From Dehalococcoidia bacterium (GTDB taxonomy: Bacteria; Chloroflexota; Dehalococcoidia; Lucifugimonadales; JAAXIE01), in assembly GCA_965197805.1 (NCBI GenBank), contig OZ240229.1, positions 1,638,502 through 1,702,501 on the forward strand: DNA of 64,000 nt, in the 5' to 3' direction. Positions 187-61,676 of this stretch are shown here, one piece after another. The number at the start of each line of letters is the position of its first letter. Position 1 is the stretch's first letter. The notes under the pieces are model-generated. The model had not been told where the DNA came from. It saw only the letters and a list, made by a program, of their open reading frames with translations, and made no database searches. A program made the position numbers and the translations under genes.

Positions 187-450
187 GTGTCGGCATTATT
201 TCAGCTCGGATCCAGCTTCGCCGATCTGGCCGAAGAAATGGTCGGGGTGATGCTTCTGTTGGGACTGGCACTACTTGGAGTGGGCGTGATCGCGGGGATC
301 GCAGGTGGAGTGTTGGCGATAATGCTCTTGGTTTACCTGTCACAACCCGGCACACCGGGCGACAACAAATACGGCCCCCATACGGAGTCGGATCGAGGGC
401 AAGCAATGGATAAGGATTCCCGGTGGGACCAACACTTCGCAACTCACTGA
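187..450 (+). CDS. small inner-membrane protein, DUF805-like
   Basis: 87 aa with one long hydrophobic stretch followed by ...GTPGDNKYGP, which resembles the conserved C-terminal G-x-N-(R/K)-(Y/F)-G-P tail I recall for DUF805 proteins. The antisense ORF 164-442 looks spurious. Confidence 0.5.
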   Translation: MSALFQLGSSFADLAEEMVGVMLLLGLALLGVGVIAGIAGGVLAIMLLVYLSQPGTPGDNKYGPHTESDRGQAMDKDSRWDQHFATH

Positions 451-6463: not shown

Positions 6464-8335
6464 ATGAGGTCCGACACTCCCACTCTGCGCCTAACCGGCA
6501 TTCTGCTTGGGATATTGCTCGTCGTCGCCGCCATAACCTCCTGCACCGACAGCACCGAGCCCACAGTGGAGGTTACCACAGTGGAGGTTACGCGTAGGCA
6601 GACTCCGGCCCCCGAGGCCGCTCTGACGGCTGCAACAGTTCTCCATGTCCCCTGGACGAGGTTGGAGTTCCGGGTTGTGCCTCGCGGTGTTCACCGAATC
6701 GAATTCGAAATGAACACGGAGGAGACTCTGGAGTATCACTACAGTCTTTGCTGTGGCCTTAGTGGCGGCGGTGACGGTCCTATAGGGGCTATGACCGATC
6801 TTGTGCAGAGCTTTACTGGTTCTCTGGACATTAGGCTGGCAATCACCGGCCCGTCAGGGGATGTGTTGTGGTCGGCAAGGACTGCCTCATACAATAACTC
6901 GACCACGGCCAGGCCTCCAGGTATCTACACTCTGGTGTTCGACAATAGCTACTCTCAATCCAAGGACAAGTCGATTAGCCTGGACTATAGGGTACTCCCC
7001 AAGGGAGTAAAGTGGGCTACCCCGCTTGCACCAACACCGGAGGCGACCCAGTGGCCTCTGCATTTTGCGGTTCGTTGGATTGAAGACCCGGCGGTGATCC
7101 AGGCGCTGGTGGACGCCGGGGCCGACGTCGATGCGAAGAACGACCATGGCGATACGCCTTTACATCTTGCGGCTAGTGGGAATGAGAACCTGGCGGTGAT
7201 CCGGGCGCTGGTGGACGCCGGGGCCGACGTCGATGCGAAGGACGCCGATGGCGACACGTCTCTGCATCTAGTGGTTGGATACAAGGCGAACCCGGCGGTG
7301 ATTCAGGCGCTGATGGACGCCGGGGCCGACGTCAATGTGAAGAACGCCGATGGTGACACTCCTCTGCATCTTGCGGTACGTTGGATTGAAGACCCGGCGG
7401 TGATCCAGGCGCTGATGGACGCCGGGGCCGACGTCGATGCGAAGGACGCCGATGGTGACACTCCTCTGCATCTTGCGGTTCCTTGGATTGAAGACCCAGC
7501 GGTGATCCAGGCGCTGGTGGACGCCGGGGCCGACGTCGATGTGAAGAACGACGATGGCGACACGTCTCTGCATCTAGTGGTTGGATACAAGGCGAACCCG
7601 GCGGTGATCCAGGCGCTGATGGACGCCGGGGCCGACGTCGATGTGAAGAACGACGATGGCGACACGTCTCTGCATCTAGTGGTTGGATACAAGGCGAACC
7701 CGGCGGTGATCCAGGCGCTGATGGACGCCGGGGCCGACGTCAATGTGAAGAACGCCGATGGTGACACTCCTCTGCATCTTGCGTCTCTTTTGAATGAAAA
7801 CCTGGCGGTAATCCAGGCGCTGATGGACGCCGGGGCCGATGTCGATGCGAAGAACGCCGATGGCGACACTCCTCTGCATCTTGCGTCTCTTTTGAATGAA
7901 AACCTGGCGGTGATCCAGGCGCTGATGGACGCCGGGGCCGAGGTCCATGCGAAGGACAACGGTGGCAGCACGCCGCTGCATCGTGCGGCTTTCGGGAATG
8001 AAAACCCGGCGGTGATCCAGGCGCTGGTGGACGCCGGGGCCGATGTCCATGCGAAGAGGGTCACTGGCCTCACGCCGCTGCATCGTGCGGCTGGTTGGAA
8101 CAATAACCCGGCGGTGATCCAGGCGCTGGTGGACGCCGGGGCCGACGTCGATGCGAGGGACAACCATGGCAGCACGCCGCTGCATCGTGCGGCTTATTGG
8201 AATGAGAACCCGGCGGTGATCCAGGCGCTGGTGGACGCCGGGGCCGACGTCGATGCGAGGGACAACGACGGGGACACGCCTTTGGATATAGCGGAGTCCA
8301 GAAGGAACACTGCCGCCATCAAGGTGCTTCAATAG
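6464..8335 (+). CDS. ankyrin-repeat lipoprotein (~13 repeats)
   Basis: The lipobox is VVAAITSC. A ~190-aa N-terminal domain is followed by repeats of consensus DGDTPLHLAxxxNxNPAVIQALxDAGADVxAKN. I counted 13 (T/S)(P/S)L(H/D) cores. Confidence 0.9.
   Translation: MRSDTPTLRLTGILLGILLVVAAITSCTDSTEPTVEVTTVEVTRRQTPAPEAALTAATVLHVPWTRLEFRVVPRGVHRIEFEMNTEETLEYHYSLCCGLSGGGDGPIGAMTDLVQSFTGSLDIRLAITGPSGDVLWSARTASYNNSTTARPPGIYTLVFDNSYSQSKDKSISLDYRVLPKGVKWATPLAPTPEATQWPLHFAVRWIEDPAVIQALVDAGADVDAKNDHGDTPLHLAASGNENLAVIRALVDAGADVDAKDADGDTSLHLVVGYKANPAVIQALMDAGADVNVKNADGDTPLHLAVRWIEDPAVIQALMDAGADVDAKDADGDTPLHLAVPWIEDPAVIQALVDAGADVDVKNDDGDTSLHLVVGYKANPAVIQALMDAGADVDVKNDDGDTSLHLVVGYKANPAVIQALMDAGADVNVKNADGDTPLHLASLLNENLAVIQALMDAGADVDAKNADGDTPLHLASLLNENLAVIQALMDAGAEVHAKDNGGSTPLHRAAFGNENPAVIQALVDAGADVHAKRVTGLTPLHRAAGWNNNPAVIQALVDAGADVDARDNHGSTPLHRAAYWNENPAVIQALVDAGADVDARDNDGDTPLDIAESRRNTAAIKVLQ
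7040..8290 (+). repeat. tandem 102-bp (34-codon) coding repeat array inside the ankyrin gene
   Basis: The landmark GCGGTGATCCAGGCGCTG recurs at 7091, 7193, 7295 and onward with a 102-nt period. Units 7538-7639 and 7640-7741 are identical at every base. Confidence 0.9.
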
Positions 8336-8815
8336 GCGATCGGTAACGCCGCACTGAGCGCGGGATTTCGGTTAAACCCAGGCGGCCAATGTCCCATCAG
8401 GGGTTCACCATGCGGATGCGCAATCGCGATGGGGCAGGGGTGATGAGAACGCTCTGAGCAAGGTTCGGTTTGGCCTGCATTGCGTTCCCGAGCGACCGAA
8501 GGGAGAGAGAACTGCCGCGCAGACCTGACTGATGCCCAAGATAGCACGGCAAGGCAGGAGGTTCCCTTGATCGTAGCAGGGCCTCCCGTTTAGTCGGCGG
8601 GCTTGTATTGAGTTCCAGTCAACAAGGGCGGTCCACGGCCCTATTACACTTCCAGCCGGAACCGCAATCCGAAAGTTCTTGATTTTATCAAGTCTGGTGG
8701 AGGAGTTGAAACTAGCGGCAGCAACGCTAGGAGAGCCGACCCGAGGGTCCGTCTTCCGCCCCATTGGGACGCACGGGGTTGCCAATCTGACTAGCAACCG
8801 GCAGGGGTGGGAGGT

Positions 8816-9850
8816 CTAGTTCGCGGCGGCGGGCGGCGTGGCCAGATGTTGCCGGACGCAATCTACAAGACGCCGCGCTTGGCCTTTGACGCCAGCTTTG
8901 TTCTCGTGGTCGAAGTAGAAACTGTAGGGTTCGATTGTACTGCCTTCGAACTTGACGCCGGAGGAGATCATCCCATCGTTGTATCCAACGTCATCGATGC
9001 GGTCGTAGGGCAGTTCTATCTCCCTGGAACCACCCCGCAACAGGAGGACACGGCGGTCTGTAGCGACTGCGATACCCTCGTGCCCTGTCCTGTTCCTCCC
9101 AGGGCCACCCATCGGGTCGAATCGGAAATCGTTGGGCAAGCCCCAGCGGCCTCCCAGCCAGTACTCAATGTTCTCGTCCTCACCAAGGATCTCGTGGAGC
9201 TTCTTGCGTTCACCTTCGTACTTCTTGAGATTGGCGCCCGAGACATTGGTAAGAAGGCGGCTAAGAAGTCCGGGATTCATCCGGCCGGCCATTGCGGAAC
9301 GGTCCTGCCACTGGGCGTCAATGCGTTCAGTTTTGCTCATTCCGAAACCTTGACCGCCCGATGAGGGAGCGACAGTTGAGCGAGGCGCGGTCTGGAGCTG
9401 CTGCACCAGTTGGGCGAAGCGGTGGCCCGCTTCGCCGTGGATATCCCGGATTTGGAAAGGGTCGTCCTGCCCCTCCCCCATCCAGGCCCAATTATGGATA
9501 CCGTTGCCAGCCACGGTCACTACTCCGACTGCGTGTTCCACTGCCGTGATGCTGGGCAATGGCATCTGAGTCACAAGTTTGTTGAGACCCTTGTGGGCGA
9601 CGAAGTGGACGCTGAGGTCGGTGACGATGGCGGCGCCCTTGAGCCTTTGCTGCCGGCTTATAAGTCCGGCGCCCTCGGCGAATGCCGACTCGGGGCCCCA
9701 AGTACAGCCCACCAGCCCCATGATGTTTTCATCTTGGTCCAGGAAGTCATAAATCAGCTTGCGCTCGCGGTCGTGATTTTCCTGACCCCATGAGAAAGCC
9801 TGCTGTACCCACTGGGCATCAACGCGGTCGCGCAGTTCTTTCGTCGCCAT
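8816..9850 (-). CDS. protein with two tandem bacterial PH-like (YokE-type) domains
   Basis: There is an internal duplication: DRVDAQWVQQ...LIYDFLDQDENIMGLVGCTWG versus ERIDAQWQDR...LHEILGEDENIEYWLGGRWG. Each copy is followed by a beta-rich segment (IAVATDRRVLLL...). The family assignment is from memory. Confidence 0.6.
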   Translation of the reverse strand: MATKELRDRVDAQWVQQAFSWGQENHDRERKLIYDFLDQDENIMGLVGCTWGPESAFAEGAGLISRQQRLKGAAIVTDLSVHFVAHKGLNKLVTQMPLPSITAVEHAVGVVTVAGNGIHNWAWMGEGQDDPFQIRDIHGEAGHRFAQLVQQLQTAPRSTVAPSSGGQGFGMSKTERIDAQWQDRSAMAGRMNPGLLSRLLTNVSGANLKKYEGERKKLHEILGEDENIEYWLGGRWGLPNDFRFDPMGGPGRNRTGHEGIAVATDRRVLLLRGGSREIELPYDRIDDVGYNDGMISSGVKFEGSTIEPYSFYFDHENKAGVKGQARRLVDCVRQHLATPPAAAN

Positions 9851-10070
9851 GGTTTAACCTCCTTGCTGGTTGCTCCGCTTAAACTACTTGTTGCTGAAGT
9901 TCACCCAGCGCGGCTCCTTTCGCCGCCTTGCCTCCATCTAAGAAAATTCCATCTCGCAAGCCCTATAAGGACCAGCGCGACCGGGTCATACAAGGGAGGC
10001 CAGCGCCGCAACGGATGCCCCCGCCCGCCTACACGGTCAATTATTACGCCGTTTACAGGCATTTTCACGA

Positions 10071-10358
10071 CTATTCTTCGCAGGGAAGGTTGTCTGTTCC
10101 CACAAGAACTCTACTGCCGATACCCCACCCTTCGGGCAGGCACCCACTTAGTTGGTTATTGCTAAAATAGATGTCTATGGGATTCAGTATAACCTCGGGG
10201 GGTATCCGCCCGGTCAGTTGGTTGCTACTCAAATGCAGCTCTGTCAGGTTGGAGAGATTGCCCAACTCCGGCGGTATCTCCCCGCTCAGCTGGTTGTTAC
10301 TGAGGTCCTCCGCCTCCGCAGGCGGCCAACAGCAGCATGAACACCAGGACACACATAA
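10071..10358 (-). pseudogene. LRR lipoprotein, frameshifted after the signal peptide
   Basis: The LRR body ([33 protein letters not shown]) starts in one frame. A lipoprotein signal, [19 protein letters not shown]-stop, reads from 10358 in a different frame. Confidence 0.6.
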
Positions 10359-10456
10359 GTGGGATGGCGTATCTGGGCAAGCATGAGTTCACAACTAACC
10401 TCCTTTGACAAGACAACCGCGTGTCGCTTCAAGCGAATCTCTATTGGTCTGTGGCA

Positions 10457-12223
10457 TCAGTGTCTGTCTTTGGCGTCGTCCGAGCTGCGGGTGGCAGCCT
10501 GGGCCTTGTGGACCTCCGCCACCATTCTTTCCGCCGACGCCCATTCTGCGCTGTGGCCGAAGTACACCGTCTCCCTTTCGCCGTCCACCGACGCCGCCGC
10601 ACAGTTCATACTCTGTGTTCGAGCGCTCTTGCCCTCCAACCACTGCCCCACAAGGAATGTCAGGAACCCTATCCCGATAACCGCGCCGTGGATAGCCCAC
10701 TCCATCGCCGAATTAGGCTCGAAGGGGCGGCAGGTTCCTATCCAACCCCTACCTCCTTCACATTCCTCCGTTACGACTCCAAACCAATACAGGACATGAA
10801 ACAGTAGCCGCCACAGCAAGTAAACGGAGGCGACACCTACCATCAGCCCCCCGCCAACCAACATGATCAAAATACCGGGCCCTTTCAGGAACCAGTTTGA
10901 CCCTCCCGTTTTGACTGGCTGCCGGTCCACCTGAACCGACGAAATCGCGCGGAGGTCAATGGTTCTGCCGGGGAGGACCAGGTTTCGCTGCGAAAGCAGG
11001 ACCTCTCCATCTTGATAGAGCGTCCGCTCCGGTTCGGGAGCATCCGCCCGGCTCGCGACTTGCCGAGTTTCGCCAGCAGTTTCTCGGTTCGCCGTCCCTT
11101 GAGCCTGCTCAGTGTAAACCGTCCGCTCTTGGAATCGTTCCGGCTCTGCCCTGTCGCGTCGCGCAGCAGCCGCTTCCGCCCCGTCTTCGGACCGTCCGGC
11201 CAAGCCCCACTCCGGTGCGGACATGAAGCCGTGATAGGCCACATTCAGGTCGAGGGCTCGCAGGGAGGCTGCCTCACCGGAGGCGAACCATGGTGGAGCG
11301 GGGACCGAAGCGTCCAGCCAGGGCTGAGCCACATCCAAAGCGACGGCATAGGCCAACATGGAATCGGGTTCGCCCCGTCCAACCGCCGGGTCAGGTCCGG
11401 CCAGAGATTCTTTCAAACCATGTAACTGGCTTATCTCATATACCCCCGCTTCCGTTGGCGCCAGCATACCCGTGTGCATCGGCGTCGCAATCATCCAATA
11501 TATGCAGCCGACGACCGCGCCGACGAGGGAGTTCGCCCACCATTGGGGCAGCCATAGAGCCAGCCAAAGCCCGCTGCCAACGCCCATCAAGGCCCCGGCC
11601 AATGTCGCCAGTCCTAATCCATCCGCGAAACGCTCCCGCCTTACCCGTATCGGGTTGTCATGGAAGAGGCCTCTGCCCTGCAGGTACTCCCCCAACTGGT
11701 CGCCGATGGCATCCTTGTGCTCCCCTATCCCGTCACGCAGTGCTTGAACCGTTGCGGGGCGCGATGGCAAGCTGTCGCATATCAACTGTTCCCACTCAAA
11801 CTGCATGGGGCCCTGCTGCGACAGCCAGTAGAGGAAGCCGCTCCTCGTTCCGACGCACTGGAATTGCAACGTGCCACGCTGGCACATCTCGGTTATTGCG
11901 GCCAGCAGAGTTCGATCGCTGACCTCCCGGTCTTCCAGCACCGATACCGCTGCCGCGGGCAGCCCAGTGCGCTGCCGGGTTCCCAACTCCAATGGGTCCC
12001 GATGCTTGGTCGCGTGCCTGGGCCGGTAACTCAGCCAAAGCCCCAGCACGAGCAGCAGCGCAACGCCGACGCCAATCGTGCGGAAACCCCACACCATGAG
12101 CTGCTTCCAATCCATATCCCGGTAATCGGGGAAGCCACTCTGGGCGATGGCTCCACCAGGGTCCAGCGCCAACAACAGCCCAATGGCAGCAAGGGCCGCC
12201 AGCGTTGCCAGAATACTCACCAT
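10457..12223 (-). CDS. multi-pass membrane protein, DUF2207-like
   Basis: 588 aa with an N-terminal signal or TM segment, a central block of TM helices (GLATLAGALMGVGSGLWLALWLPQWW...) and C-terminal TM helices. The layout and the LTxxEAGxL-like segment resemble DUF2207. The family call is tentative. Confidence 0.55.
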   Translation of the reverse strand: MVSILATLAALAAIGLLLALDPGGAIAQSGFPDYRDMDWKQLMVWGFRTIGVGVALLLVLGLWLSYRPRHATKHRDPLELGTRQRTGLPAAAVSVLEDREVSDRTLLAAITEMCQRGTLQFQCVGTRSGFLYWLSQQGPMQFEWEQLICDSLPSRPATVQALRDGIGEHKDAIGDQLGEYLQGRGLFHDNPIRVRRERFADGLGLATLAGALMGVGSGLWLALWLPQWWANSLVGAVVGCIYWMIATPMHTGMLAPTEAGVYEISQLHGLKESLAGPDPAVGRGEPDSMLAYAVALDVAQPWLDASVPAPPWFASGEAASLRALDLNVAYHGFMSAPEWGLAGRSEDGAEAAAARRDRAEPERFQERTVYTEQAQGTANRETAGETRQVASRADAPEPERTLYQDGEVLLSQRNLVLPGRTIDLRAISSVQVDRQPVKTGGSNWFLKGPGILIMLVGGGLMVGVASVYLLWRLLFHVLYWFGVVTEECEGGRGWIGTCRPFEPNSAMEWAIHGAVIGIGFLTFLVGQWLEGKSARTQSMNCAAASVDGERETVYFGHSAEWASAERMVAEVHKAQAATRSSDDAKDRH

Positions 12224-13683: not shown

Positions 13684-14550
13684 TCAGCAGAAGGGCAGGC
13701 CGCCAAGGTTAGAGAGGTCAAAAAACAACAAGTCGTCTTCCAAGCTGCTTGGCACGCACCCGCTCAACTTGTTGTTGCGGAGGTCCAGCGATACCAGGTT
13801 GGAGAGGCTGCCCAATTCCGGGGGTATCTCCCCGCTCAAGGCGTTGTTGTAGAGCATCAGAAATTGCAGGTTGGAGAGGCTGCCCAGCTCCGCCGGTATC
13901 TCCCCGCTCAAGTGGTTCAGGCCGAGGTCCAGCCTTGTGAGGTTGGAGAGGCTGCCCAACTCCGGCGGTATCTCCCCGCTCAACTCGTTGTTTTCGAGCT
14001 CCAGCCTTGTGAGGTTGGAGAGGCTGCCCAATTCCGGGGGTATCTCCCCGCTCAAGTCGTTTTCGTAGAGGGCCAGCGACTCCAGGTTGGCGAGGCTGCC
14101 CAGCTCCGCCGGTATCTCCCCGCTCAAGTCGTTGAATCTGAGGTCCAGCGCTGTAACCCGCCCGTCGTCGTCAGTGGTGACGCCCTCCCATTCGCCGAGG
14201 GGAGCGTCGCTCAGCCAGTTGTCGCTGTTCTCCCAGTTCTCACCGTCCGTTGCGTTGTAGAGGGCAACCAGGGCTTCCCGATCCGTTTCGGCGGAGCCGG
14301 AGGCCGCGGGCGGCGCTGTCGTAGCCGTAGGTCCAAGCGCAACGGCGGCAGTGGGCGCGGCCTCTGACCCCGGCGTGGAAGGCGTCCGTGCGGGGGAGGC
14401 CGGCGTCTCCGTTGGCGTGGACGCGGTACGGTCGGGGCCTGTCACGCCGGACGGCTCATCGGAGCCGCAGGCCGCGAGCGCCACCGTAAGGGCCAGCGCA
14501 AGGACAACGCTCAACAGGGTTATGTATCTTGTCGTGCGTGTACGGGTCAT
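13684..14550 (-). CDS. LRR lipoprotein (plant-type LRR consensus)
   Basis: The lipobox is LTVALAACG, followed by a P/T/A-rich linker. At least six repeats read LxxLxLxxNxLSGEIPxELGSLSNL. The ATG at 14550 is preceded by GGGAGGGAAAGGAA. The ORF-track start at 14598 is less likely. Confidence 0.85.
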   Translation of the reverse strand: MTRTRTTRYITLLSVVLALALTVALAACGSDEPSGVTGPDRTASTPTETPASPARTPSTPGSEAAPTAAVALGPTATTAPPAASGSAETDREALVALYNATDGENWENSDNWLSDAPLGEWEGVTTDDDGRVTALDLRFNDLSGEIPAELGSLANLESLALYENDLSGEIPPELGSLSNLTRLELENNELSGEIPPELGSLSNLTRLDLGLNHLSGEIPAELGSLSNLQFLMLYNNALSGEIPPELGSLSNLVSLDLRNNKLSGCVPSSLEDDLLFFDLSNLGGLPFC

Positions 14551-15418
14551 TTCCTTTCCCTCCCGGTCTTGACCGGCACCATATATCCACAGATTCATAC
14601 GGATAGTATGGCGGAGGTGCTATGGGGGTCAATGCTGAGACACCCGTTCGCCACTCCCAAATATGTGTTGGTATGTCGGCTTCCGCAGGGATGAGCGGGC
14701 GCACGATACCGCCCATCCTGAGCCTATCTGTTTTAAACCAGCAGAGGGTCGGGAAGTCGGTCTGGTGGAGGCCGGTCTGAACCAACCTGGGATAGCAGCT
14801 AGGGCATGTCGATGCCCTCCTGAACCCTATCGGCCACCGACGCCACTCGCTACTCCGGGACACCGCCTCGGCCTTCATCACCGACACGTGGGAACCGTGT
14901 CGGTGATGATATCGTCTATTCTCTCGGTGATGTCCATGGTGCAAGCGTGGGTGGGGTAGGCCAGCGCCCGGCGTCTCTCTACCCGCTTGGTGGCCACCAA
15001 GTCGATGAGCGCCTGCTCATTGGGATAGACCCGCTCCTCTGAAAGGAGCGGCGCATGGACGATGATGTCGCCGCTCCTGAGGAACTCTCCCAGTAGGGCA
15101 GCACTAGGGCCTGGCTAAAAGTCCAGAACGAACCTCAAGGTGAAGGTTCTTGATTTTGTCCAGTGTGGTGGAGACAGCCGGACAAGAAACATTTTGCAGA
15201 AAATGATTAGCACCTTGGAGCAGCGGAAAGTGGTCATGTCTGCAGGAAGACCGGCGGCCCATGATACTCGGTGTTTCGGGTTGTTGGAGCAGCCCTTCCG
15301 GTGCTGGCGCGGTCGAGACGGCTGTGTCCTCGCTAGCGTTGGCCCGATTTCTGGCCCTACCTGTTACCGAGCACGACTGTCTGAAGAGATCAAATCCGCC
15401 GCAGGCTCACTTTCATGG

Positions 15419-18397
15419 TCACTTCCGTAAGAATTTGGTCACGTAGTCTACGTCGACTGCGGGCATTCCCAGACCGATTTCCGACAATGCTTCGGAGAAC
15501 CGGCCGATGTCGTAGACGCTGGTATCGGACATGAACGGCTCGACTGACTCCAGGGACCGTATCAGAACTTTCAACTCCATGTCATCATCGCGGTTGGCCA
15601 TCGTGTCCAATCTTGATTTCCAGTCCCCCAATTGAGCGCGGTCCGCCACGTATCCGTGGATCTCCATATATGCAAAAACTTCATCGGCAGGTACGGGGGC
15701 CTGTTGAACCACGTTGTATACCCTGCCCAGGTGTCTGGGATCGTCGGAAATTTTCGTTATTGCCTTGACCAGAAAGTCGACAGGTGTCATCTCGAAGAAC
15801 CATTCCGGCACCAAGGGGGCACATCCGAGGCGGGCGCAGGCCTTGATAATCAACGAGAGAAAGTCATTCGGGTTGACCATGCCCGTACCGCTGTGGTGGC
15901 CAATGTTGCCCGGACGGAAGATGCATACCGGCAGTCCTCGAGAAACAGCCGACCAGACAAGCCGCTCCGCAACCCATTTGGCCTGATTGTAGCCCCCCTC
16001 CATCCTGTCGACGAAGCCGTCTATGTCGTTGTTCTCAAGGTAGGGGTTGTCGTCTCCTCCGGGGAAAATGCCGTTGGATGAAATGTATTGGATCGGCTTT
16101 GTTGCAGCGGTGCAGGCGAACTTGAGCACCTCCATTGTCCCTCCGACGGTGTGGGACTTGGCTGCAGAATAGGGGTAGGCGTAGTTGACCGAGGCCGCGC
16201 AATGGAAAATCAGGTCGATCTCTTCCGCCAGCCGCCGGTACTCCTCATCGTTCAGACCCATCCGGGGCCGGGTGAGGTCTCCAGCCACCGGAGCGATCCG
16301 TTGTCCGGATGACTGGTCGGCCAGCCCGTAAAATTTCAGGGTGTCCAGCACGCGGTTGGTGGAGCCGCCCTGTCCTGAGTCCGGGTCTCTTACCAAGCAG
16401 TAGAACCGGGTGTCCGGTCCCGTGGCGCGCAGCAGTTCGTCGAGCAAAAAGGCTCCCAGGAATCCGGTTGTTCCCGTCACAAGGACCGAGCACGCCTCGC
16501 TGAGACGTGTAATTCTCGGGGCGCCGCCTGGTGAAATCGCCGGGTCCAGGGTCGAGTCCTCGGCCAGTGAAATTCTGGATTCCATATTCGGCCCTCTATG
16601 TTCCAAGTATGCCCCCAACTCATTCATGGTGGGGTACTCGTAAATCTCCGTGCCGCTCAGTTCAATCCCAAACAGTCGTTCGATGCCCAGGGTGAGGTCC
16701 AGGCCCGTCAGGGAGTGGCCTCCGAGATGAAAGAAGTTCCAGTCATCTTCCAGTGAGTCGCCGTCGACTTCCAGTGCTTCACTCCATAGCTCCCGCAAGG
16801 CCCTGAGACGCTCCCCTGCGGTTGCGCACTTGGACAGCGGGGTGCGCTCCTTAACCGCATGTCTCCTTTCCCGCAATGCGGGCAATGCTTTGCGCTCCAG
16901 TTTGCCCGTCTGTTGATTTATCGGGAGCGTCTCCAGTTCCATGAAGTGGCTGGGCACCATGTAGAGCGGCAGATATCGTTCCAGCAGAGCACGCAGGTCT
17001 CTGCTTGTCCCGCTCTTCCCATCGACCTTCCATGCCGCTCGCGGGCCCCGGACGACGTAGGCCACGAGCCGCCTATTGGATTCGTCCTTGCTCTCGGCCA
17101 AAACCGCAGCATCGGCAGCGCCACAGTGCTTGCGGAGGGTCTCCTCTATGGCACTCAGGTAAACGCTGTAGCCCCTGATCTTGACCATCGAATCATTGCG
17201 GCCGATGATCGTTGTCACACCACGCCCATCAACTTCGGCAAGGTCTCCGGTGGCGTAATACCTCTCTCTGTCCCATATGACGAACCTCTGGGAATCCAGG
17301 TCGGGCCTCTTCAGATAGCCCCGGGCCAGTCCGCGACCGCCAATGAAGAGCTCTCCGACTCCGGTTGAAGCCAGATCGGACTGCCCCTCCGGTAGCACCC
17401 TGAGCGTCACCCCGTCCATTGCATAACCCACCGGGCACGCATCCACTCCGTCGAGACACAAGTCCGTCAGTTCAATGGTGCAAACGTCGTGGGTCTCGCT
17501 GATGCTGTAGGTGTTGAACACTCGCGCAGACCGGGACAGAACGTCCAAGGTCGGCTTAAGCAGGCTGGCCGGCACCACCTCGCCGTTCAGCCAGACCACA
17601 CGCAGAGAGGACAGCCGGGCCCGCAATTGTTCTGGGCTCGCCGAATTCAAGATCCCCTGCAGCAAGGACGGAGTGAAGAGCACCTCGGTAATCCGGTGTT
17701 TCGCTATGAACCCCGTAAGCGCGCGCGGCACGAACATCACATTATCGGGAATAACGTATACGGTTCCTCCCTTCAACAGCGGCCGGAGGAACTCCCAAGG
17801 AAAGAAGATGTTGCACGCGACCCTGTCTCCGACGCTGTGGGAACTGAACCTGTACCTCGCCAGGTAGGATGAAATCAGGGCGCCGCTGCTCTGCATAACG
17901 CCCTTTGGTTGTCCTGTTGTGCCGGAGGTGTAGGGGAGGAACGCCAGGTCGCCGGTGTCAACGCATATCTCATCGGTCGCGGGATCGAGCGCTCTCCAGG
18001 ACCGGTCGGAGTCAACGGGCAATAGGCAAGGCCCAGAGAATTTACTCAGCCTGGGCAAGTGCAGGGCCTTGGTGATCACCACCTTGGGTTGGGACTCGGA
18101 CACCAGTGTACCGAGCAGGGAATCGGGGAGATCCAGGGCCACTGGCATGAAGGCCGCGCCGGCCTTCAATGTCCCAATGACAGCGGCGATGTACTCCGGG
18201 CAGGTTTCCATGTATATGCCCACCGGATCATCGGTTGATACGCCGCAACGTCGAAGGTAGGCCCCCAAGGCATCCGTCGCCTGGTCCAGTTGTGCATAGG
18301 ATGTCTGCTCAGAGCCAAAGACTATTGCCGGAGTGTCTGGAGTCTCCGTCGCTTGATCCTTGAACAGCTGATGCAAGCCACTCCCTGCGGAATTCAT
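15419..18397 (-). CDS. stand-alone NRPS-like enzyme: adenylation - thiolation - thioester reductase (A-T-R)
   Basis: A-domain cores are LPYTSGTTGQPKGV, YATGDLA, GRNDSMVKIRGYSVYLSAIE and PINQQTGKLERKAL. The carrier domain reads FFHLGGHSLTG. The reductase domain reads VLVTGTTGFLGAFLLDELL with catalytic YNQAK. Confidence 0.9.
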   Translation of the reverse strand: MNSAGSGLHQLFKDQATETPDTPAIVFGSEQTSYAQLDQATDALGAYLRRCGVSTDDPVGIYMETCPEYIAAVIGTLKAGAAFMPVALDLPDSLLGTLVSESQPKVVITKALHLPRLSKFSGPCLLPVDSDRSWRALDPATDEICVDTGDLAFLPYTSGTTGQPKGVMQSSGALISSYLARYRFSSHSVGDRVACNIFFPWEFLRPLLKGGTVYVIPDNVMFVPRALTGFIAKHRITEVLFTPSLLQGILNSASPEQLRARLSSLRVVWLNGEVVPASLLKPTLDVLSRSARVFNTYSISETHDVCTIELTDLCLDGVDACPVGYAMDGVTLRVLPEGQSDLASTGVGELFIGGRGLARGYLKRPDLDSQRFVIWDRERYYATGDLAEVDGRGVTTIIGRNDSMVKIRGYSVYLSAIEETLRKHCGAADAAVLAESKDESNRRLVAYVVRGPRAAWKVDGKSGTSRDLRALLERYLPLYMVPSHFMELETLPINQQTGKLERKALPALRERRHAVKERTPLSKCATAGERLRALRELWSEALEVDGDSLEDDWNFFHLGGHSLTGLDLTLGIERLFGIELSGTEIYEYPTMNELGAYLEHRGPNMESRISLAEDSTLDPAISPGGAPRITRLSEACSVLVTGTTGFLGAFLLDELLRATGPDTRFYCLVRDPDSGQGGSTNRVLDTLKFYGLADQSSGQRIAPVAGDLTRPRMGLNDEEYRRLAEEIDLIFHCAASVNYAYPYSAAKSHTVGGTMEVLKFACTAATKPIQYISSNGIFPGGDDNPYLENNDIDGFVDRMEGGYNQAKWVAERLVWSAVSRGLPVCIFRPGNIGHHSGTGMVNPNDFLSLIIKACARLGCAPLVPEWFFEMTPVDFLVKAITKISDDPRHLGRVYNVVQQAPVPADEVFAYMEIHGYVADRAQLGDWKSRLDTMANRDDDMELKVLIRSLESVEPFMSDTSVYDIGRFSEALSEIGLGMPAVDVDYVTKFLRK

Positions 18398-18453
18398 TTT
18401 GCCATCTCAAGCACCCCCAAACGCAATCAGGCAAAAACGGGCGTCTGTTCCAG

Positions 18454-18470
18454 ATTATCCGAAGGATAAT
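18454..18470. promoter_or_regulatory. perfect 7-3-7 palindrome ATTATCC-GAA-GGATAAT in the AT-rich region upstream of the A-T-R gene
   Basis: Read directly from the sequence, 57-73 nt upstream of the start codon at 18397, in the only markedly AT-rich stretch of this neighbourhood. Confidence 0.3.
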
Positions 18471-19107
18471 AGCTGAGTTTATAAAATCTGAAGCCTAAAG
18501 TAAATTGTGATTCCATAATGATAGTAACTGTTCGTCGCATCGTAATCCGACCTCTTCAAGGGTGTCTACATGCAATTAGACTCACTGGACTTTAACAGGT
18601 GGGAGGTCTGAATCGCCTATCTAGTGTTCGCCCATGGATACGAGCCTTGTACAGAGCCCTAGGTGTTTTGGTAGAGTCCTGCTAGGGAAGGTGGTCTGTG
18701 GCTCCCTGAAGCTGACCCTGCCACTCGGTCAGTGCATCGCAAACGAACAGCCATTCCTGCCTTGTGGTGACTCCATCCCCTTCAATCGCTGATATGGGTG
18801 GATGTCATCGACGCTGCTGATATGCTCCGTGGCCTTGGCCGAAGTCCAGTCGGCCACAATCCCACCACCATCAGGGTGAACCGGAGGACGACAAACACGC
18901 TGCCGACAAGCAGCATGGAGATTGTTCCCGGCCCAATCAGCGTTCGCCATTGGTTTCACTAGCTAGCCGGAGTGAAGCCGGCTGGGAGGTCCCATCCGGC
19001 AGAAAGGGCTCGGCTCACCTCCGACTCGTCATAGCCTCTCCTCGGAGGAGCGGCTTCCAATTCATGGTAGGCAATGGGCTTTGACGGCACCTCGGCTGGT
19101 CAGGAAA

Positions 19108-19185
19108 TGGTGGGCCGACGCTTGGCTCGAACCACTGACCTCTGCCGTGCCAGCGCAGCAGTCTATCCAACTGAGCTAACTGTCC
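19108..19185 (-). tRNA. tRNA-like sequence (GGC anticodon loop), non-pairing 3-prime end; probable chimeric or pseudo-tRNA
   Basis: The reverse complement has a D arm (TAGCTCAGTTGGATAGA), an anticodon arm CTGCG-CTGGCAC-GGCAG, a T loop (GGTTCGAGCC) and terminal ...TCGGCCCACCA. The last ~17 nt cannot pair with the 5-prime acceptor (GGACAGT) or the T-stem (AGTGG). Confidence 0.4.
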
Positions 19186-19797: not shown

Positions 19798-19981
19798 TTA
19801 CCGGGTTGGCAACGGCACCCGCAGGCTCATGCAGCGCAGGGAGCAGTGGCCAGGGCAGCCGGGCCGGGCCAACGTCTCGTCCATCTCGATCAGTCGTGCC
19901 CCGACCATCCGCTTGACGTTGCACGCCAGGGCCTTGAGATAGACGGCGAGCCGGACCCTCTCGCCGCCACGTACCCGTAAG
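19798..19981 (-). pseudogene. C-terminal end of an IS5/IS1182-type transposase, distal part, split by the IS1380 insertion
   Basis: It reads ...RVRGGERVRLAVYLKALACNVKRMVGA... When joined across the IS with 21684-21750 it gives KRRHGLGRLRVRGGERVRLAVYLKALACNVKRM, a typical DDE_Tnp_1 C-terminus. Confidence 0.6.
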
Positions 19982-21683
19982 CCCCGATCCACCGAAGAGA
20001 TGAGTGTGGGGGCGTAATGAAGGGGTAAGAAAGCGCTCCCTGCTTGGGGGATAATGGTTTCAGGAAGACGAAACCGACCCCAAACCGGGAGCACCCAATT
20101 GATGCTACCACCTGAGCGCCCCGACCGCATCCAAATCGCCTTTGATGATCACCGCCTGGTGGCCAATGCCGGGCTGCTCTTGCCGGTCACCCTGGCCCAG
20201 CGCCTGGGTCTGTCCCAGCTGGTTGACCGCCACGTTGACCTGGGCGATGCTCCTGGACGAGCCAACGCTGGCGACAAGATGCTGACCCTGGTAGCGTCGG
20301 CGCTGGCTGGGGGCGACTGCATCGACGACGCCGACGTGTTGCGCACCGGCGGGACCGCTCGTGCCATCGGCTGCGTGGTCAAGGCGCCGTCCACTCTGGG
20401 CACCTTCCTGCGCAGTTTCCGATGGGGTCACGTGCGCCAGATGGACCGGGTGAGTCGGGAGCTGCTGGCTCGGGCCTGGGCCGCCGGTGGGGGACCCGGC
20501 GACGGTCCGTTGACCATCGATCTGGACTCCACTATCTGCGAGACCTACGGGTTGGCCAAGGAAGGGGCACGGCGCCACAACTACACCGGCCAACGGGGCT
20601 ATCACCCGCTCCTCGCCATCGCAGCCGGCACCGGGGACGTGCTGATGGCCCGGCTCAGGGAGGGCCGGGCCAACACGGCCAGGGGCTCGGCCCACTTCCT
20701 GCGGGAAACGGTGGGGCGGGTGCGCCACGCCGGAGCCACCGGACCACTCACCGTGCGGGCCGACAGCGGCTTTTACACCCATGGCATCGTCGCCGTCTGT
20801 CGCAAGACGAAGGTCCGCTTCTCCATCACTGTCCGCCAGCACGCCCGACTGCGTAATCTCATCGAGGCCATACCAGAGGAAGAGTGGACGCCCATCCCCT
20901 ACTGGATGGAGGGCGCCGCCGACGTGGCCGAGACTGACTACACACCATTTGGCAGTGAGCCCGACGCCGTGCCGGTACGTCTCATCGTCCGCCGGGTGAA
21001 GCCCACGCCCGGTTCCCAACTGGCGCTCTTCGCCAACTATAGCTATCACGCTTTCATCACCGACCGGGAGGGCGACACCCTGGATCTCGAGGCCGACCAT
21101 CGCCGCCACGCCGAGATCGAGAACGCCATCCGCGACCTGAAGTACGGCGTGGGGCTCAACCACCTGCCATCGGGACGCTTTCCCGCCAACGCCGCCTGGC
21201 TGGCCGTCCAGGTCATGGCCCACAATCTGGCCCGCTGGACAACGCGCATCGGTCTGGGCGAGCCGGCGGCAACCACCAAGACCCTTAGGCGGCGCTTCTT
21301 CGCCCTGGCCGGACGGCTCACTCACTCCGCCCGTCGCCTCACCTTGCATCTTCCTCAGAGCTGGCCCTGGGGAAACCAATTCGGCAGAGCCCTGGCAAGA
21401 CTGCGCGCCCTACCGCTCCCTGCCTGACGGCGTCCGACCCATCCGCCGCACTACCCAACCGCCTGGCGGGCTTGCGCCACGCCGGTCCCTGAGTGTCTCC
21501 TGCTTCCAGCTGGCTGCCGGTCTCGCCCGCCACCAGCGGCTGCGGGCCGTCAGAAATCACATTTGCGCGGCTGTCGCACCCCACACCGTCCAAATCTGCC
21601 GGAATCAAAACCCGCCAGTCTCATTCCCGCACCTCTCACCCCTGGCCTGACCGGCACGGCCCAAACCCTCGGTGGATTCGGGG
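19982..21683 (+). mobile_element. complete IS1380-family insertion sequence (1702 bp)
   Basis: Terminal inverted repeats are CCCCGATCCACCGAAG (19982-19997) and the reverse complement of CCTCGGTGGATTCGGGG (21667-21683). A 4-bp direct duplication TAAG flanks the element at 19978-19981 and 21684-21687. Confidence 0.85.
20054..21427 (+). CDS. IS1380-family DDE transposase
   Basis: 457 aa and full length, with TIDLDSTICETYG, YHPLLA and the C-terminal HRRHAEIENAIRDLKYGVGLNHLPSGRF motif. The start may instead be the ATG at 20102. Confidence 0.9.
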   Translation: MVSGRRNRPQTGSTQLMLPPERPDRIQIAFDDHRLVANAGLLLPVTLAQRLGLSQLVDRHVDLGDAPGRANAGDKMLTLVASALAGGDCIDDADVLRTGGTARAIGCVVKAPSTLGTFLRSFRWGHVRQMDRVSRELLARAWAAGGGPGDGPLTIDLDSTICETYGLAKEGARRHNYTGQRGYHPLLAIAAGTGDVLMARLREGRANTARGSAHFLRETVGRVRHAGATGPLTVRADSGFYTHGIVAVCRKTKVRFSITVRQHARLRNLIEAIPEEEWTPIPYWMEGAADVAETDYTPFGSEPDAVPVRLIVRRVKPTPGSQLALFANYSYHAFITDREGDTLDLEADHRRHAEIENAIRDLKYGVGLNHLPSGRFPANAAWLAVQVMAHNLARWTTRIGLGEPAATTKTLRRRFFALAGRLTHSARRLTLHLPQSWPWGNQFGRALARLRALPLPA

Positions 21684-23122: not shown

Positions 23123-23626
23123 GCGCCATGGACGTGGACTCGAACCTATCGCATGTCCATTGGTACCACCGCCCAGAGTGCCAAGCTGAACCTCAGCGGG
23201 AAGGATCCGTAAGCTGAGCAGAATCGAGAGGATACGCACCGCATGACCAACGACCGCCTGCTCCTCAGCCGCTGTGGAGCGAGGGAACCGAGACCTTCAC
23301 CTGCTTCGATTCTCGCCTCGACCTCAGCCGTGCTAATAGAATGGGATCACTCTGAGGCGTTTGACCGCACCGTGTATTCGTGGAATGGAGTTAATCTCTG
23401 CACGGCGTTGCAGGAGGTCCTTCAATCGAGGCGGTGCGAGGCACCTAGGCCTCTATTGCGAGGGGGCACCAACCTGCCAGCGGTAGGCGATCCGGTTCAC
23501 TGCACTCATTTCAGGGCAGTTGCAGCCGATGGTGGGAGGACATGCGAATTCTGCCACAGGCGACGAGAACACTGCATATGCTACCATAAATCCATAATTC
23601 CATTTGTTACAGAGGACTCTAACACG

Positions 23627-23902
23627 ATGAAGGTAATCAGCGTGGCCGTCGACGATGAAACCCACCGCCTGGCCAGGATCAAGGCCGCCCAACAGGGCAC
23701 ATCCATGTCCGCTCTGCTGAGGGAGTACCTTCTGCAGGCACTCAGGGAGGACGGCAACCGGCATCCTGCGGAGACCGAGCCGCAGCGCAGGGCGAGAAAC
23801 TTGGACGAGGTCATGGCAAGGTTTGAGGCGGAGGGCGTGGGTTTAAATGCCAGTGAAAGGCTGAGCAGGGAGGAACTGTACGACAGGCATGCGTCTCGCT
23901 GA
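23627..23902 (+). CDS. RHH/CopG-like antitoxin (VapB-type)
   Basis: MKVISVAVDDETHRLARIKAAQQGTSMSALLREYL is a ribbon-helix-helix pattern. The gene overlaps the downstream PIN gene by 14 nt. The ORF-track start at 23243 is implausibly far upstream. Confidence 0.7.
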   Translation: MKVISVAVDDETHRLARIKAAQQGTSMSALLREYLLQALREDGNRHPAETEPQRRARNLDEVMARFEAEGVGLNASERLSREELYDRHASR

Positions 23903-25218: not shown

Positions 25219-25631
25219 CCGCGCTCGACACAAATGTGATCGTACGCTACTTGGTGGGCGACAACGCTGAACACGCTGAGGCGTCTCGCGCGTTGCTGGA
25301 TGGGCTGACGCCCGGTAATCCAGGATTCATTTGCCGCGAGGTCGTCGTAGAGGTCGCCTGGGTACTGGAACGGAGCTACCGCTTCACACGAACCCGAGTC
25401 GCGGAGGCATTGATGGACCTAACCGCTTCGGACAGTCTCGTCATCGAGAATTCTGATGACGTCGCCGCAGCTGCACATCGCTATCGGCAAGGAGGCGCCG
25501 GGCTTTCGGACTTGATGATCCTTAGAGCGGCCGAACGGGTGGGGGCGACGCCCCTCTACACCTTTGACCGCAGACTTGCCAGGATGCAGGGAACAATCTT
25601 GGTGGAGAATCCCGGGGGTAAGTCGTCATGA
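25215..25631 (+). CDS. vapC: PIN-domain toxin
   Basis: MTALDTNVIVRYLVGD...CREVVVEVAWVL...LSDLMILRAA...LYTFD. Confidence 0.9.
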   Translation: MTALDTNVIVRYLVGDNAEHAEASRALLDGLTPGNPGFICREVVVEVAWVLERSYRFTRTRVAEALMDLTASDSLVIENSDDVAAAAHRYRQGGAGLSDLMILRAAERVGATPLYTFDRRLARMQGTILVENPGGKSS

Positions 25632-25935
25632 AGGACTCACAAAAACCCGACCACGTGAGTCTCGCCAACATGGTCGGACGTTTGCGCGAGGGGCGGTACG
25701 TGATCCCCGATTTCCAGCGTGACTTTGAATGGGAGCCATGGGACATCAAAGAGCTAATGAGTTCCATCTTCCGCGACTACTACATCGGTAGCCTTCTTCT
25801 TTGGAAGGGCAAAGACGAAAACTTTGAGGCACTCTCCTGTGAGGCGATCTACGGGTTTGAGGGTAGTGATGGCCGAACCGATATCGTCTTGGACGGTCAG
25901 CAGCGTCTTACGGCCATGTATTACGCGTTCATGGC
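25628..25935 (+). pseudogene. DUF262 (ParB-like nuclease, GmrSD N-terminal type), N-terminal fragment
   Basis: It reads YVIPDFQRDFEWEPWDIKELMSSI...IVLDGQQRLTAMYYAF. DUF262 homology stops abruptly near 25930 and the reading frame continues into unrelated sequence. Confidence 0.7.
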
Positions 25936-26508
25936 ACGGTACTTGCTCGGGCCGATCACGACATTATCGAGGGCAGCCGGTTCTCCATGTCGGAGGATGA
26001 GCTGCGGCAGTCTAGGGAAACTCCCTGGCTGCCCCGAAGCGTCGAAGACCGAATCGCCTATGACACCGGACGGACGCAACGTATCGTTCAAGCATACAAG
26101 GATCATGTCGACTCTAATTGGCCGACGCTTATTTTCGCCACCTCAGTGGAACACTCGCAGACCGTCGCAGCACTCTTGGCCTCAACGGGAGTCAAGGCAC
26201 GAGCTGTGAGCTCCGCCACTGATGCATCTGCTCGTCGCCGCATTGTAGAGGAGTTCCGTCCCGGCGAACTCGAGGCCCTCGTCAACTACGGGATATTCAG
26301 GGAGGGGTTCGATGCACCGAAGACTCGGGCCATCATAGTCGCTCGGCCGGTATACAGTCCCAACCTCTACTTCCAGATGATCGGTAGAGGTCTGCGCGGC
26401 GTCAAGAACGGAGGCAACGACCGCTGCCTTATTCTGAACGTGCGGGACAATATCAATAACTTCGAACGAAAACTGGCCTTCTCCGACCTCGATTGGCTCT
26501 GGGCCTGA
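25936..26508 (+). pseudogene. SF2 helicase C-terminal domain fragment fused behind the DUF262 fragment
   Basis: TLIFATSVEHSQ...VNYGIFREGFDAPKTRAIIVARP...QMIGRGLR covers helicase motifs IV-VI. No motif I/II region precedes it. Confidence 0.7.
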
Positions 26509-41678: not shown

Positions 41679-41753
41679 GGGGGATATGTACAGCGTGACA
41701 CTTTGACGCGCAACCCCTTGGAGGCACAACTCCGCCAAACCTAATGAAAGCTA

Positions 41754-42687: not shown

Positions 42688-43700
<1,013 letters not shown>

Positions 43701-52070: not shown

Positions 52071-52228
52071 GTTACTCACTTGCCCCACTTTCGAGAATTG
52101 TCTGTCGGGCAAGCAGGAGGAGGGGCCGTGCACGACTCACCAGAAGAGGTAGGCAGCGAGTCGGATTGCCTCTTGAGTGAGGCGACCCTTTTCCTTAGGA
52201 AAGGAGTGAACCGAAGCTAGTTCGTAGC

Positions 52229-58783: not shown

Positions 58784-59054
58784 CCACCGACCTCCTAGTC
58801 GTGCCGCGCCGCATACAGGCACAGCTACGCATTCTCAGATACGATTTTCCATCGCAGTGTAGGCGTCGCAGGCCGCGAGTGTCAAACGCGTCTCGTGGGG
58901 TGTGGCTGGGCCAAGATCGGCCGGAAACTCGGCAATCGCACTGGCGGTTGAGTGAGGAAGTCCACTTGAGGCACGTTAGCGATAAGCCACAGGTTGACGT
59001 ACTTTCTATCATATCTCAATAATAGAAATACAGCGATGGAGGTCTTGCTCTCTT

Positions 59055-61563: not shown

Positions 61564-61676
61564 TATCTGCACTCCCGGATAATATGTTACTATACGGGAA
61601 GTATAAGTGTAGCAGGATGGTAAGTCAATACATAGCGGGGTATACTTTGCGGGAAGTTGTACCTGCGGAGACAGCA

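Follow-up and report, generated by a model that had tools for sequence, protein, structure and literature searches.

We analysed a 64,000-nucleotide stretch of DNA from a Dehalococcoidia bacterium (Chloroflexota; assembly GCA_965197805.1, contig OZ240229.1, positions 1,638,502 to 1,702,501 of the forward strand), hereafter called the window, and concentrated on one gene at 15419..18397 on the minus strand. According to the list of open reading frames (ORFs) and their translations, this gene starts with an ATG codon, encodes 992 amino acids followed by a stop codon and specifies an A-T-R carboxylate reductase, which the comparisons given below assign to the ATRR type. The adenylation (A) domain covers residues 12-505 (16883..18364, minus strand), as delimited by Pfam, ortholog motifs and an AlphaFold2 (AF2) model; the carrier domain (T, or peptidyl carrier protein, PCP), recognised by Pfam as PP-binding, covers residues 533-598 (16604..16801, minus strand), with its phosphopantetheine site at Ser562 within GGHSL; and a single thioester-reductase (R) domain, identified by TIGR01746 and its motifs, covers residues 638-981 (15455..16486, minus strand). 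The Pfam matches on the 992-residue protein are AMP-binding (12-362), AMP-binding_C (417-494), PP-binding (533-598) and NAD_binding_4 (640-880). The A-domain core motifs A3 (YTSGTTG, residues 156-162), A7 (YATGD), A8 (GRxDSMVKIRG) and A10 (Lys499), the carrier serine, the Rossmann motif of the R domain (TGTTGFLG, of the form TGxTGFLG) and the catalytic triad Ser773/774-Tyr803-Lys807, which together characterise the A-T-R class in general, are all present and near-invariant among orthologs, Ser562 being strictly invariant. The Tyr-Lys pair (Tyr803-Lys807), on which an earlier note on this DNA had made its proposal depend, is therefore in place, and that note's description of a stand-alone A-T-R enzyme of 992 residues is borne out. 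In addition, Pfam searches of the flanking ORFs and of 20 further ORFs, together with six-frame signature scans of the whole window, revealed no condensation (C) domain, phosphopantetheinyl transferase (PPTase), MbtH or tailoring gene, as had been stated, and no short-chain dehydrogenase/reductase (SDR). The ratio dN/dS lies between 0.21 and 0.28 against seven relatives and is 0.27 against the closest one, which indicates that this copy is under purifying selection.

We compared the protein with known families of adenylating and reducing enzymes. The thioester-reductase model TIGR01746 of NCBIfam scored 268.8, above its cutoff of 213, and the best full-length NCBIfam match was the A-T-R part of MxcG. 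The amino-acid adenylation model TIGR01733 scored 258 against a cutoff of 317, the Lys2-type equivalog TIGR03443 reached 310 bits against a cutoff of 1030, the AusA model matched residues 9-598 only with 319 bits against a cutoff of 2500, and the carboxyl_red equivalog NF041592 matched residues 348-933 only with 168 bits against a cutoff of 1300. The A domain has the standard fold of non-ribosomal peptide synthetases (NRPSs): Foldseek against the PDB returned generic NRPS A domains only, and the top phmmer matches were also NRPS A domains. It is thus not of the type found in FadD and the carboxylic acid reductases (CARs), an affiliation with primary-metabolism ligases that the earlier note had named as fatal to its proposal. 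A search of a representative library with the full protein gave, in a ranking by summed domain score, 150 top matches that were giant multi-module NRPSs without exception, with no near out-groups among them. The closest solved relative of the R domain is MxaA-R (PDB 4u7w, E=5e-74), with the catalytic Ser/Thr-Tyr-Lys residues aligned. MxaA-R is a four-electron reducer, that is, its release reaction forms an alcohol, and by analogy it is possible that the single R domain studied here also forms an alcohol directly.

The A domain departs from canonical ones precisely where the substrate is bound. The signature C-N-I-F-F-P-W-E (residues 195-202; 17792..17815, minus strand) stands in for the FDxS motif at A4, as judged from alignments and the AF2 model, and the sequence N-T-Y-S-I-S-E-T-H-D (residues 295-304; 17486..17515, minus strand), delimited by ortholog and family alignments, forms a non-canonical A5 motif and the strand that follows it, with NTYSISE instead of NxYGPTE. 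The unusual NTYSISET reading of A5 had been pointed out before; it is real and no accident of this copy, since residues 295-301 are invariant in 75 of 75 full-length orthologs and belong to the signature of the family. The A4 region also carries a five-residue deletion relative to canonical A domains. This deletion made automatic alignments disagree on the register, and HMMER scattered gaps across it. With MAFFT and a shortened PheA ruler we obtained the code D-R-W-L-W-N-T-V-C-K, in which Asp191 of 'GDR' is set against Asp235; it was overruled by wider alignments and by the secondary structure of the AF2 model. The fragment of PheA was used as a ruler only, and it reproduced the published code DAWTIAAICK. 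The register was settled by including more of the PheA context and more family members in the alignments, and by the AF2 model (residues 1-520, pLDDT 85.8), in which residues 192-194 form a strand, 195-199 a loop, 200-208 a full-length helix and 292-299 and 303-309 two further strands, and which places the deletion before helix 200-208.

In this register the Stachelhaus positions are 235=I197, 236=F198, 239=W201, 278=L240, 299=W269, 301=N271, 322=T296, 330=D304, 331=V305 and 517=K499, and the specificity code, whose extraction the earlier note had proposed, reads IFWLWNTDVK. Position 235 is thus Ile197, with neither Asp nor Glu there, and the lack of Asp235 speaks against an ordinary alpha-amino acid substrate, on general knowledge as well as on published work (bioRxiv 10.1101/559534). 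Residues F198, F199, W201, W269, H303 and D304 are each invariant in the 75 orthologs, and 50 family members, bacterial and eukaryotic, all have F198, F199, W201 and E202. Trp269, whose codon was located at 17589..17591 (minus strand) from the ortholog alignment, occupies position 299 as the third aromatic residue of the cage; all but one of the other bacterial relatives aligned also have Trp at this position, the exception having Tyr, and the cnidarian, mollusc and hemichordate ATRRs have Trp. In this alignment Asp304 (Stachelhaus 330), with His303 beside it, appears as the acidic residue of the pocket, which is probably small, aromatic and acidic and suited to a small cation.

Such a pocket is known from eukaryotes. 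The fungal ATRR (A-T-R1-R2; Aspergillus nidulans AN5318; Hai, Huang & Tang) forms choline from glycine betaine by reduction; its A domain is without Asp235 and holds the trimethylammonium group in an aromatic cage formed by F201, W204 and W270 together with E304, its R1 domain strictly yields betaine aldehyde and its R2 domain yields choline, sulfobetaine is turned over about ten-fold more slowly, and the atrr genes were called 'widespread but exclusive to eukaryotes' (bioRxiv 10.1101/559534). Phe202 of AnATRR stacks on Trp204, which is argued to give a small pocket (PMC13194791). By the published residue numbers, F201, F202, W204, W270 and E304 of AnATRR correspond to F198, F199, W201, W269 and D304 here, with cage spacings of 3/68/35 in the present protein and 3/66/34 in AnATRR. 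A second characterised homolog, PtNRPS1 of the diatom Phaeodactylum tricornutum (A-T-R1-R2), is reported to reduce Trp to tryptophanol; its residues N212, F214, F215, V216, W217, F285 and E319, of which Glu319 salt-bridges the substrate (PMC13194791), give the same A-domain signature by published numbering rather than direct alignment, with 68 residues to the next aromatic and then the acid. PtNRPS1 has Phe285 where AnATRR and the present protein have Trp, and it is eukaryotic with two R domains.

We then established the relationship to these enzymes by direct comparison with animal and protist sequences. Searching outward from the most divergent ortholog led to A-T-R proteins of 41-51% identity from Nitrospinales, Desulfobacterales, Rubrobacter/Actinomycetota and Tectomicrobia, as well as to eukaryotic matches (Perkinsus, a coral), and with a profile of the latter we recovered the ATRR family of animals and protists. 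Its members have about 1290 residues and the architecture A-T-R1-R2; two of them (Nematostella, Haliotis) are named 'glycine betaine reductase ATRR' by NCBI, and we take a Meloidogyne incognita entry to be the MiATRR of PMC11050029. Over the A core (residues 150-420) the window protein shares an identity of 38-47% with the ATRRs of animals and protists, 41-54% with the other bacterial relatives and 30-33% with canonical NRPS A domains and PheA; its R domain, aligned directly, shows 35-45% identity with R1 of the ATRRs. All family members aligned share the five-residue deletion and the motifs CN(V/I)FFxWE..RP(L/I)L, FTPSL, xLNGEV and NxYSxSExH(D/E), which are absent from canonical A domains. 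In a neighbour-joining (NJ) tree of 343 columns, the bacterial relatives and the eukaryotic ATRRs grouped against canonical A domains in 100 of 100 bootstraps; the eukaryotic ATRRs were monophyletic in 100 of 100 and the bacterial sequences in 31 of 100. It is very probable, from these comparisons, that the gene is a bacterial, single-R member of the ATRR-type NRPS-like carboxylate reductases. The main structural difference is that ATRR carries a fused SDR-type R2 domain, whereas the 992-residue protein is A-T-R with one NAD_binding_4/TIGR01746 domain and lacks R2. Moreover, ATRR was reported as exclusive to eukaryotes, whereas the present gene is bacterial and known from its sequence alone.

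Stand-alone SDRs occur beside some bacterial family members. In an out-group bacterium (locus L083), the A-T-R gene (8001-10664) is apparently continued in a 126-residue ORF and followed by a stand-alone adh_short SDR (11075-11911), and gcvT, gcvH and gcvP, a glycine-cleavage operon, together with lipoate genes precede the A-T-R gene (segment 27-11911). This could be a split A-T-R1 and R2 arrangement beside glycine metabolism. As candidates for a split R2, this SDR and the SDR family found near some Dehalococcoidia genes (fam9) are about 30% identical to ATRR R2, a generic level of similarity that is not decisive.

The gene had been described as an orphan, a view that the comparison of genomes does not sustain. 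More than 100 ortholog clusters were found at 72-96% identity, nearly all of exactly 992 residues and many on megabase contigs. A genome scan yielded 79 loci at 65-96% identity, all from metagenome-assembled genomes of Dehalococcoidia/Chloroflexota, and these relatives were compared with the window (80 loci in total) by calling ORFs crudely and then clustering them. A methyltransferase of about 229 residues that depends on S-adenosylmethionine (SAM) is present in 54 of the 80 loci, usually as the next gene upstream of the reductase, with divergent orientation. In 33 loci there is a kinase of the PfkB family that runs convergently to the methyltransferase, and in 12 a kinase of the EcKL/APH fold sits right after the methyltransferase, often with a sulfatase-superfamily gene. 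Since these methyltransferase and kinase arrangements occur beside reductases that are 65-90% identical to the window protein, we conclude that kinase, methyltransferase and A-T-R reductase form an ancestral module. Many lineages keep the reductase without adjacent partners. No PvfA, PvfB, PvfD-type or other tailoring gene was found near the reductase in the 80 loci. The fungal atrr genes have no conserved neighbourhood, unlike the bacterial gene with its ancestral cluster, although the flanks are variable here too, as reported for fungal atrr.

The partner families were examined by profile searches. The first matches of the methyltransferase profile were phosphoethanolamine/phosphobase N-methyltransferases (PMTs; 4krh at 7e-12, 4ine at 1e-10 and 5wp5 at 2.5e-10), followed by 5wp4 and then the Plasmodium PMTs; the alignments reach residue ~205, beyond the generic SAM-binding core, and keep the catalytic His of (C/V)IQH (H128) and the Arg of R-x-Y (R177). 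The PfkB kinase fell below all NCBIfam cutoffs, and the EcKL/APH kinase (fam3), searched against the PDB both as a single sequence and as a profile, gave weak APH-fold matches only, with no link to choline kinases. The sulfatase-family neighbour (fam7; for example at 7989-9398, minus strand, in locus L012) reads P-T-M-P-T-R where sulfatases carry C/S-x-P-x-R, with Thr at the formylglycine position, and by eye it seems closer to the phosphodiesterase and phosphotransferase members of the alkaline-phosphatase superfamily. Contig CBDFLW010000004.1 carries two reductase paralogs (L001 and L076), each with its own methyltransferase, L001 being accompanied by the PfkB kinase and L076 by the EcKL/APH kinase and the sulfatase-family gene; a second two-copy case, L005/L068 on contig CBDCTI010000009.1, has the EcKL/APH kinase at both copies. 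Shortened A-T-R ORFs of 504-879 residues were found in 5 of the 80 loci (L038, L077, L039, L061 and L076) and could be occasional decay or assembly frameshifts.

The window has lost the partners of its reductase. Homology to the relatives is limited to 15124-18599, and all that is left of the divergent PMT-like methyltransferase is a stub of 13 N-terminal codons (MQLDSLDFNRWEV*; 18570..18611, plus strand), recognised by translation and alignment to relatives. The same N-terminus is kept as 25, 63 and 72 residues in L058, L011 and L007, respectively; because lineages keep different N-terminal lengths, the methyltransferase gene was truncated independently several times. An insertion sequence (IS) element at 19975..21504 (plus strand), identified by Pfam through its DDE_Tnp_1_4 transposase ORF (20054-21427), is separated from the stub and the break in synteny by 1.4 kb of unique sequence, and 12 related loci of Dehalococcoidia have copies of it, 77-84% identical, no more than 10 kb away from the A-T-R gene. 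The arrangement of these features indicates that the loss of partners in the window is a local, derived rearrangement next to the IS element. Between the stub and this element, a stretch at 19105-19185 (minus strand) looks like a tRNA by eye (GTTAGCTCAGTTGGATAG ... GGTTCGAGCC ... CCA). As a tRNA or attachment (att) site it was rejected by ARAGORN, which found nothing, and by Rfam, with no match at the gathering threshold or at E<=1; the stretch could be what is left of a tRNA or att site that decayed where the rearrangement took place. On the other side of the gene, the ~290 nt that follow the stop codon (15124-15418) are 90-95% conserved with the nearest relatives L058, L055, L004 and L001 and not with distant ones. 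No convincing small co-directional ORF or MbtH was found in this segment, and an antisense 'ORF' at 15140-15430 that recurs in 8 loci is probably spurious.

The region upstream of the reductase is conserved as well. Alignments of 7 and 35 loci delimit a putative promoter and leader at 18398..18484 (minus strand), within about 200 nt of upstream sequence conserved among relatives, with the consensus TTGTAA-17-TAATAAT, a leader of ~50 nt and a Shine-Dalgarno (SD)-like GAGRTGG. The window has a -35-like TTATAA (18479-18484), a -10-like GATAAT (18454-18459), a ~50-nt leader and an SD-like GAGATGG. A simple consensus scan did not call this promoter, and its function is suggested by the conservation and the boxes. 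The 5' leader (18398-18447, minus strand; ACGCCCGTTTTTGCCTGATTGCGTTTGGGGGTGCTTGAGATGGCAAA) is the best-conserved non-coding part across relatives and matched no Rfam family. The earlier note had seen a uniquely AT-rich promoter region with a palindromic operator for dedicated repression. The AT-richness is genuine, as the lowest-GC 150-nt stretch of the 64 kb starts at 18451 (GC 0.38), but 'uniquely' goes too far, the next lowest being 0.39 at 41726. Similarly, the perfect 7-3-7 palindrome ATTATCC-GAA-GGATAAT (ATTATCCGAAGGATAAT; 18454..18470, no strand assigned) does exist 56 nt upstream of the ATG, where it overlaps the -10-like box; a palindrome scan allowing up to two mismatches found this site as its one match, with 0.03 expected per window and a match in 3 of 100 shuffles. 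Among the 79 relatives, however, the palindrome occurs in none, exact or loose; about 12 keep only the 5-nt arms ATTAT...ATAAT, and relatives read TATTATCCTT-TAATAAT at this site. The right arm GGATAAT is the -10-like box of the family and the left arm lies within the spacer, and it is changes specific to the window, from TT-TAATAAT in relatives to TTCGGATAAT here, that create the 7+7 symmetry. Because the palindrome is not conserved in orthologous promoters, a dedicated operator is not supported.

The surroundings of the gene are rich in repeat proteins and mobile DNA. Pfam identified the flanking ORFs as a leucine-rich-repeat (LRR) protein, a DUF2207 membrane protein, a bPH protein, an ankyrin-repeat protein and the IS transposase. 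Across the window, eukaryote-like repeat proteins (ankyrin, 6464-8335; LRR, 13684-14598; fn3/GH85-like, 444-3173) are accompanied by defence genes or fragments (GmrSD_N pieces at 25628-26209 and 34197-35591, a HEPN protein at 45741-46457 and an RHH antitoxin-like ORF at 23243-23902), by mobile genes (IstB, 42756-43553; an integrase, 50988-52133; a DDE+SWIM transposase, 60232-61689) and by many short ORFs without any family. A luciferase-like, F420/FMN-dependent monooxygenase (57608-58822, minus strand) is among the few metabolic genes recognised in the ORFs tested and is unrelated to the reductase. Ankyrin, LRR and fn3 proteins together with mobile and defence genes are typical of sponge-symbiont genomes, and the bin names of some relatives (APA_bin, SB0661_bin) hint at sponge metagenomes; the host lineage is probably marine and sponge-associated. 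A literature search on betaine metabolism in sponge Chloroflexota returned nothing specific.

For the substrate, the oxidation state of the product and the role in a pathway, we infer the following route. In a pocket lined by Phe198, Phe199, Trp201 and Trp269, with Asp304 as counter-charge and no Asp to bind an alpha-amino group, the A domain would adenylate a small carboxylate that carries a cationic (onium) group, glycine betaine or a partly N-methylated glycine being the most likely candidates. The acyl group would be loaded on the phosphopantetheine arm at Ser562, which would require a PPTase from elsewhere in the genome, and the single R domain with NAD(P)H would release the aldehyde, betaine aldehyde in the case of glycine betaine; reduction of the aldehyde to the alcohol (choline) might then fall to this R domain as well or to a separate dehydrogenase. 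In the ancestral three-gene module, made of the reductase, a PfkB or EcKL/APH kinase and the PMT-like methyltransferase, the product would feed a phosphocholine-type pool; we say with modest confidence that these three enzymes fit a route to phosphocholine-type compounds. In the window, the rearrangement beside the IS element removed the partners and left the reductase with its own conserved putative promoter and leader. The full statement, by which this bacterial gene specifies an ATRR-type reductase with a single R domain and a small betaine-type acid, probably glycine betaine, as its substrate, is one on which we consider the evidence for and against to be evenly poised.

Several points weigh against this reading. 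The link to AnATRR is made by published residue numbers and by direct alignment to animal ATRRs, and the tree is NJ only, built with eukaryotic ATRRs other than fungal ones and with an uncertain rooting within the clade, bacterial monophyly being found in 31 of 100 replicates. Within the pocket region, N271, T296 and E238 stand where eukaryotic ATRRs have Cys, Leu and Arg, and PtNRPS1 bears the same signature with Trp as its reported substrate, so that the signature does not fix the substrate. R2, the domain that defines ATRR, is absent, and tblastn with ATRR R2 domains found no R2-like SDR in the window; as R1 of ATRR halts at the aldehyde, the formation of choline here is uncertain. The methyltransferase is moderately similar to PMTs, in an alignment that does not include the catalytic Asp, and neither type of kinase has informative relatives. 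Finally, several lineages lost the partner genes independently of one another, and from this repeated loss we conclude that the reductase does not strictly depend on adjacent partners.

An enzyme of the same class could reduce another onium or cationic acid to its aldehyde or alcohol, for example dimethylsulfoniopropionate (DMSP), beta-alanine betaine, gamma-butyrobetaine, carnitine, proline betaine, homarine or trigonelline. A cage plus an acid implies a cationic head group and not glycine betaine specifically, several residues of the pocket region are unlike those of eukaryotic ATRRs, fungal ATRR accepts sulfobetaine, albeit slowly (bioRxiv 10.1101/559534), and the host lineage is apparently marine and sponge-associated. 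On the other hand, the four residues of cage and acid match those of AnATRR one for one at near-identical spacing, the Phe202-Trp204 stacking in AnATRR is argued to make a small pocket (PMC13194791), and the PMT-like methyltransferase partner indicates the ethanolamine/choline series; we find another onium acid unlikely. Nor is it likely, and we would put this reading rather low, that the enzyme is an amino-acid reductase that binds the amine of a (possibly aromatic) amino acid through Asp304 and releases an amino aldehyde or alcohol, perhaps a signal or a pyrazine-type dimer, as the earlier note had suggested with PvfC in mind. PtNRPS1, with its NxFFVW...E signature, its conversion of L-Trp to tryptophanol and its Glu319 salt bridge (PMC13194791), is the precedent for this reading. 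Stand-alone A-T-R makers of amino aldehydes are generally known (PvfC, AusA, HqlA, LnaA), and the best full-length match in NCBIfam is the A-T-R part of MxcG. NRPSs of the PvfC/AusA type, which make pyrazine, pyrazinone and piperazine signals, likewise use reductive release from a carrier domain, but they keep Asp235, activate alpha-amino acids and have dedicated partner genes or a second module, neither of which features is seen in the present gene, with Ile197 in place of Asp235 and no such tailoring gene near any of the 80 loci. In addition, position 299 is Trp as in AnATRR and not Phe as in PtNRPS1, the TIGR01733 score lies below its cutoff, and constant length and lineage-wide presence resemble core metabolism rather than a strain-specific signal. 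The MxaA and MxcG R domains (myxalamid, myxochelin) are themselves termini of multi-module assembly lines with condensation or ketosynthase (KS) domains, whereas the present enzyme is a stand-alone module with an ATRR-type A domain. A PvfC-type signal is thus unlikely, given Ile197, the ATRR clade, the presence of the gene throughout the Dehalococcoidia sampled and purifying selection, and the reductase is probably not the lone maker of a peptide-like signal; the part of the earlier note that survives is its hedge that such enzymes may act as carboxylate reductases.

It is very improbable that the gene encodes a generic carboxylic acid reductase of the CAR/FadD9 kind acting on fatty or aryl acids, for instance in the synthesis of lipid or wax alcohols. 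The CARs of Nocardia, Mycobacterium and Segniliparus (PDB 5msc, 5mso and 5msp) have the same A-T-R architecture and logic, with adenylation by ATP, a phosphopantetheine thioester and reductive release by NADPH, and 5msc is a detectable homolog (E=1e-40 with the full-length protein as query and 3e-29 with the R domain). Their A domain, however, is of the FadD/CAR type for aryl and alkyl acids, whereas the present one is NRPS-type with a small, aromatic and acidic pocket that would suit a small cation, and the carboxyl_red match is partial and far below its cutoff. The ElbD-type ether-lipid family of sponge symbionts, NRPS-like enzymes in which an acylglycerolphosphate acyltransferase domain is fused to A-T-R (PMC9426513), was considered as an identity and rejected on architecture, as Pfam detected no fused domain of this kind in the 992-residue protein. 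We hold it equally far-fetched that the window carries a stranded relic, a copy left without a physiological role when its partners were lost amid mobile-element debris: the methyltransferase is cut to its stub, IS elements and fragments of genes abound in the region and shortened reductase genes occur in five related loci, but the ORF is full-length with every catalytic motif intact, dN/dS is low against the closest relative and overall, promoter and leader are conserved, and many other lineages retain the reductase without neighbouring partners.

The preferred reading, an ATRR-type reductase of a small betaine-type acid, would place this gene in a wider context. As far as we could find, the bacterial single-R clade lies outside the published picture of ATRR, in which the only characterised enzymes with such an A-domain pocket are eukaryotic, the fungal ATRR and its diatom homolog. 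We propose, tentatively and with more doubt than confidence, that ATRR-type betaine reductases are not a eukaryotic invention: a broad bacterial single-R clade (Dehalococcoidia, Nitrospinales, Desulfobacterales, Actinomycetota and Tectomicrobia) would share the same cation pocket, the three-gene module of the probably sponge-associated Dehalococcoidia would lead reductively from glycine betaine or N-methylglycines to phosphocholine, a bacterial route not described before, and the eukaryotic ATRR would have arisen from such a bacterial gene by fusion with an SDR (R2). If the bacterial clade did reduce betaine-type acids, the oxidation of choline to betaine would be reversible in bacteria too, and the clade would offer a plausible prokaryotic ancestor for eukaryotic ATRR, with R2 gained by fusion. 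It would also provide enzymologists with a compact 992-residue scaffold for the reduction of small cationic acids. For genome mining, calls of 'NRPS-like orphan' genes of this type in Chloroflexota would denote enzymes resembling those of primary metabolism and not cryptic natural-product genes, and abundant uncultured sponge symbionts could draw on a common osmolyte of their host to make head groups of choline or phosphocholine.

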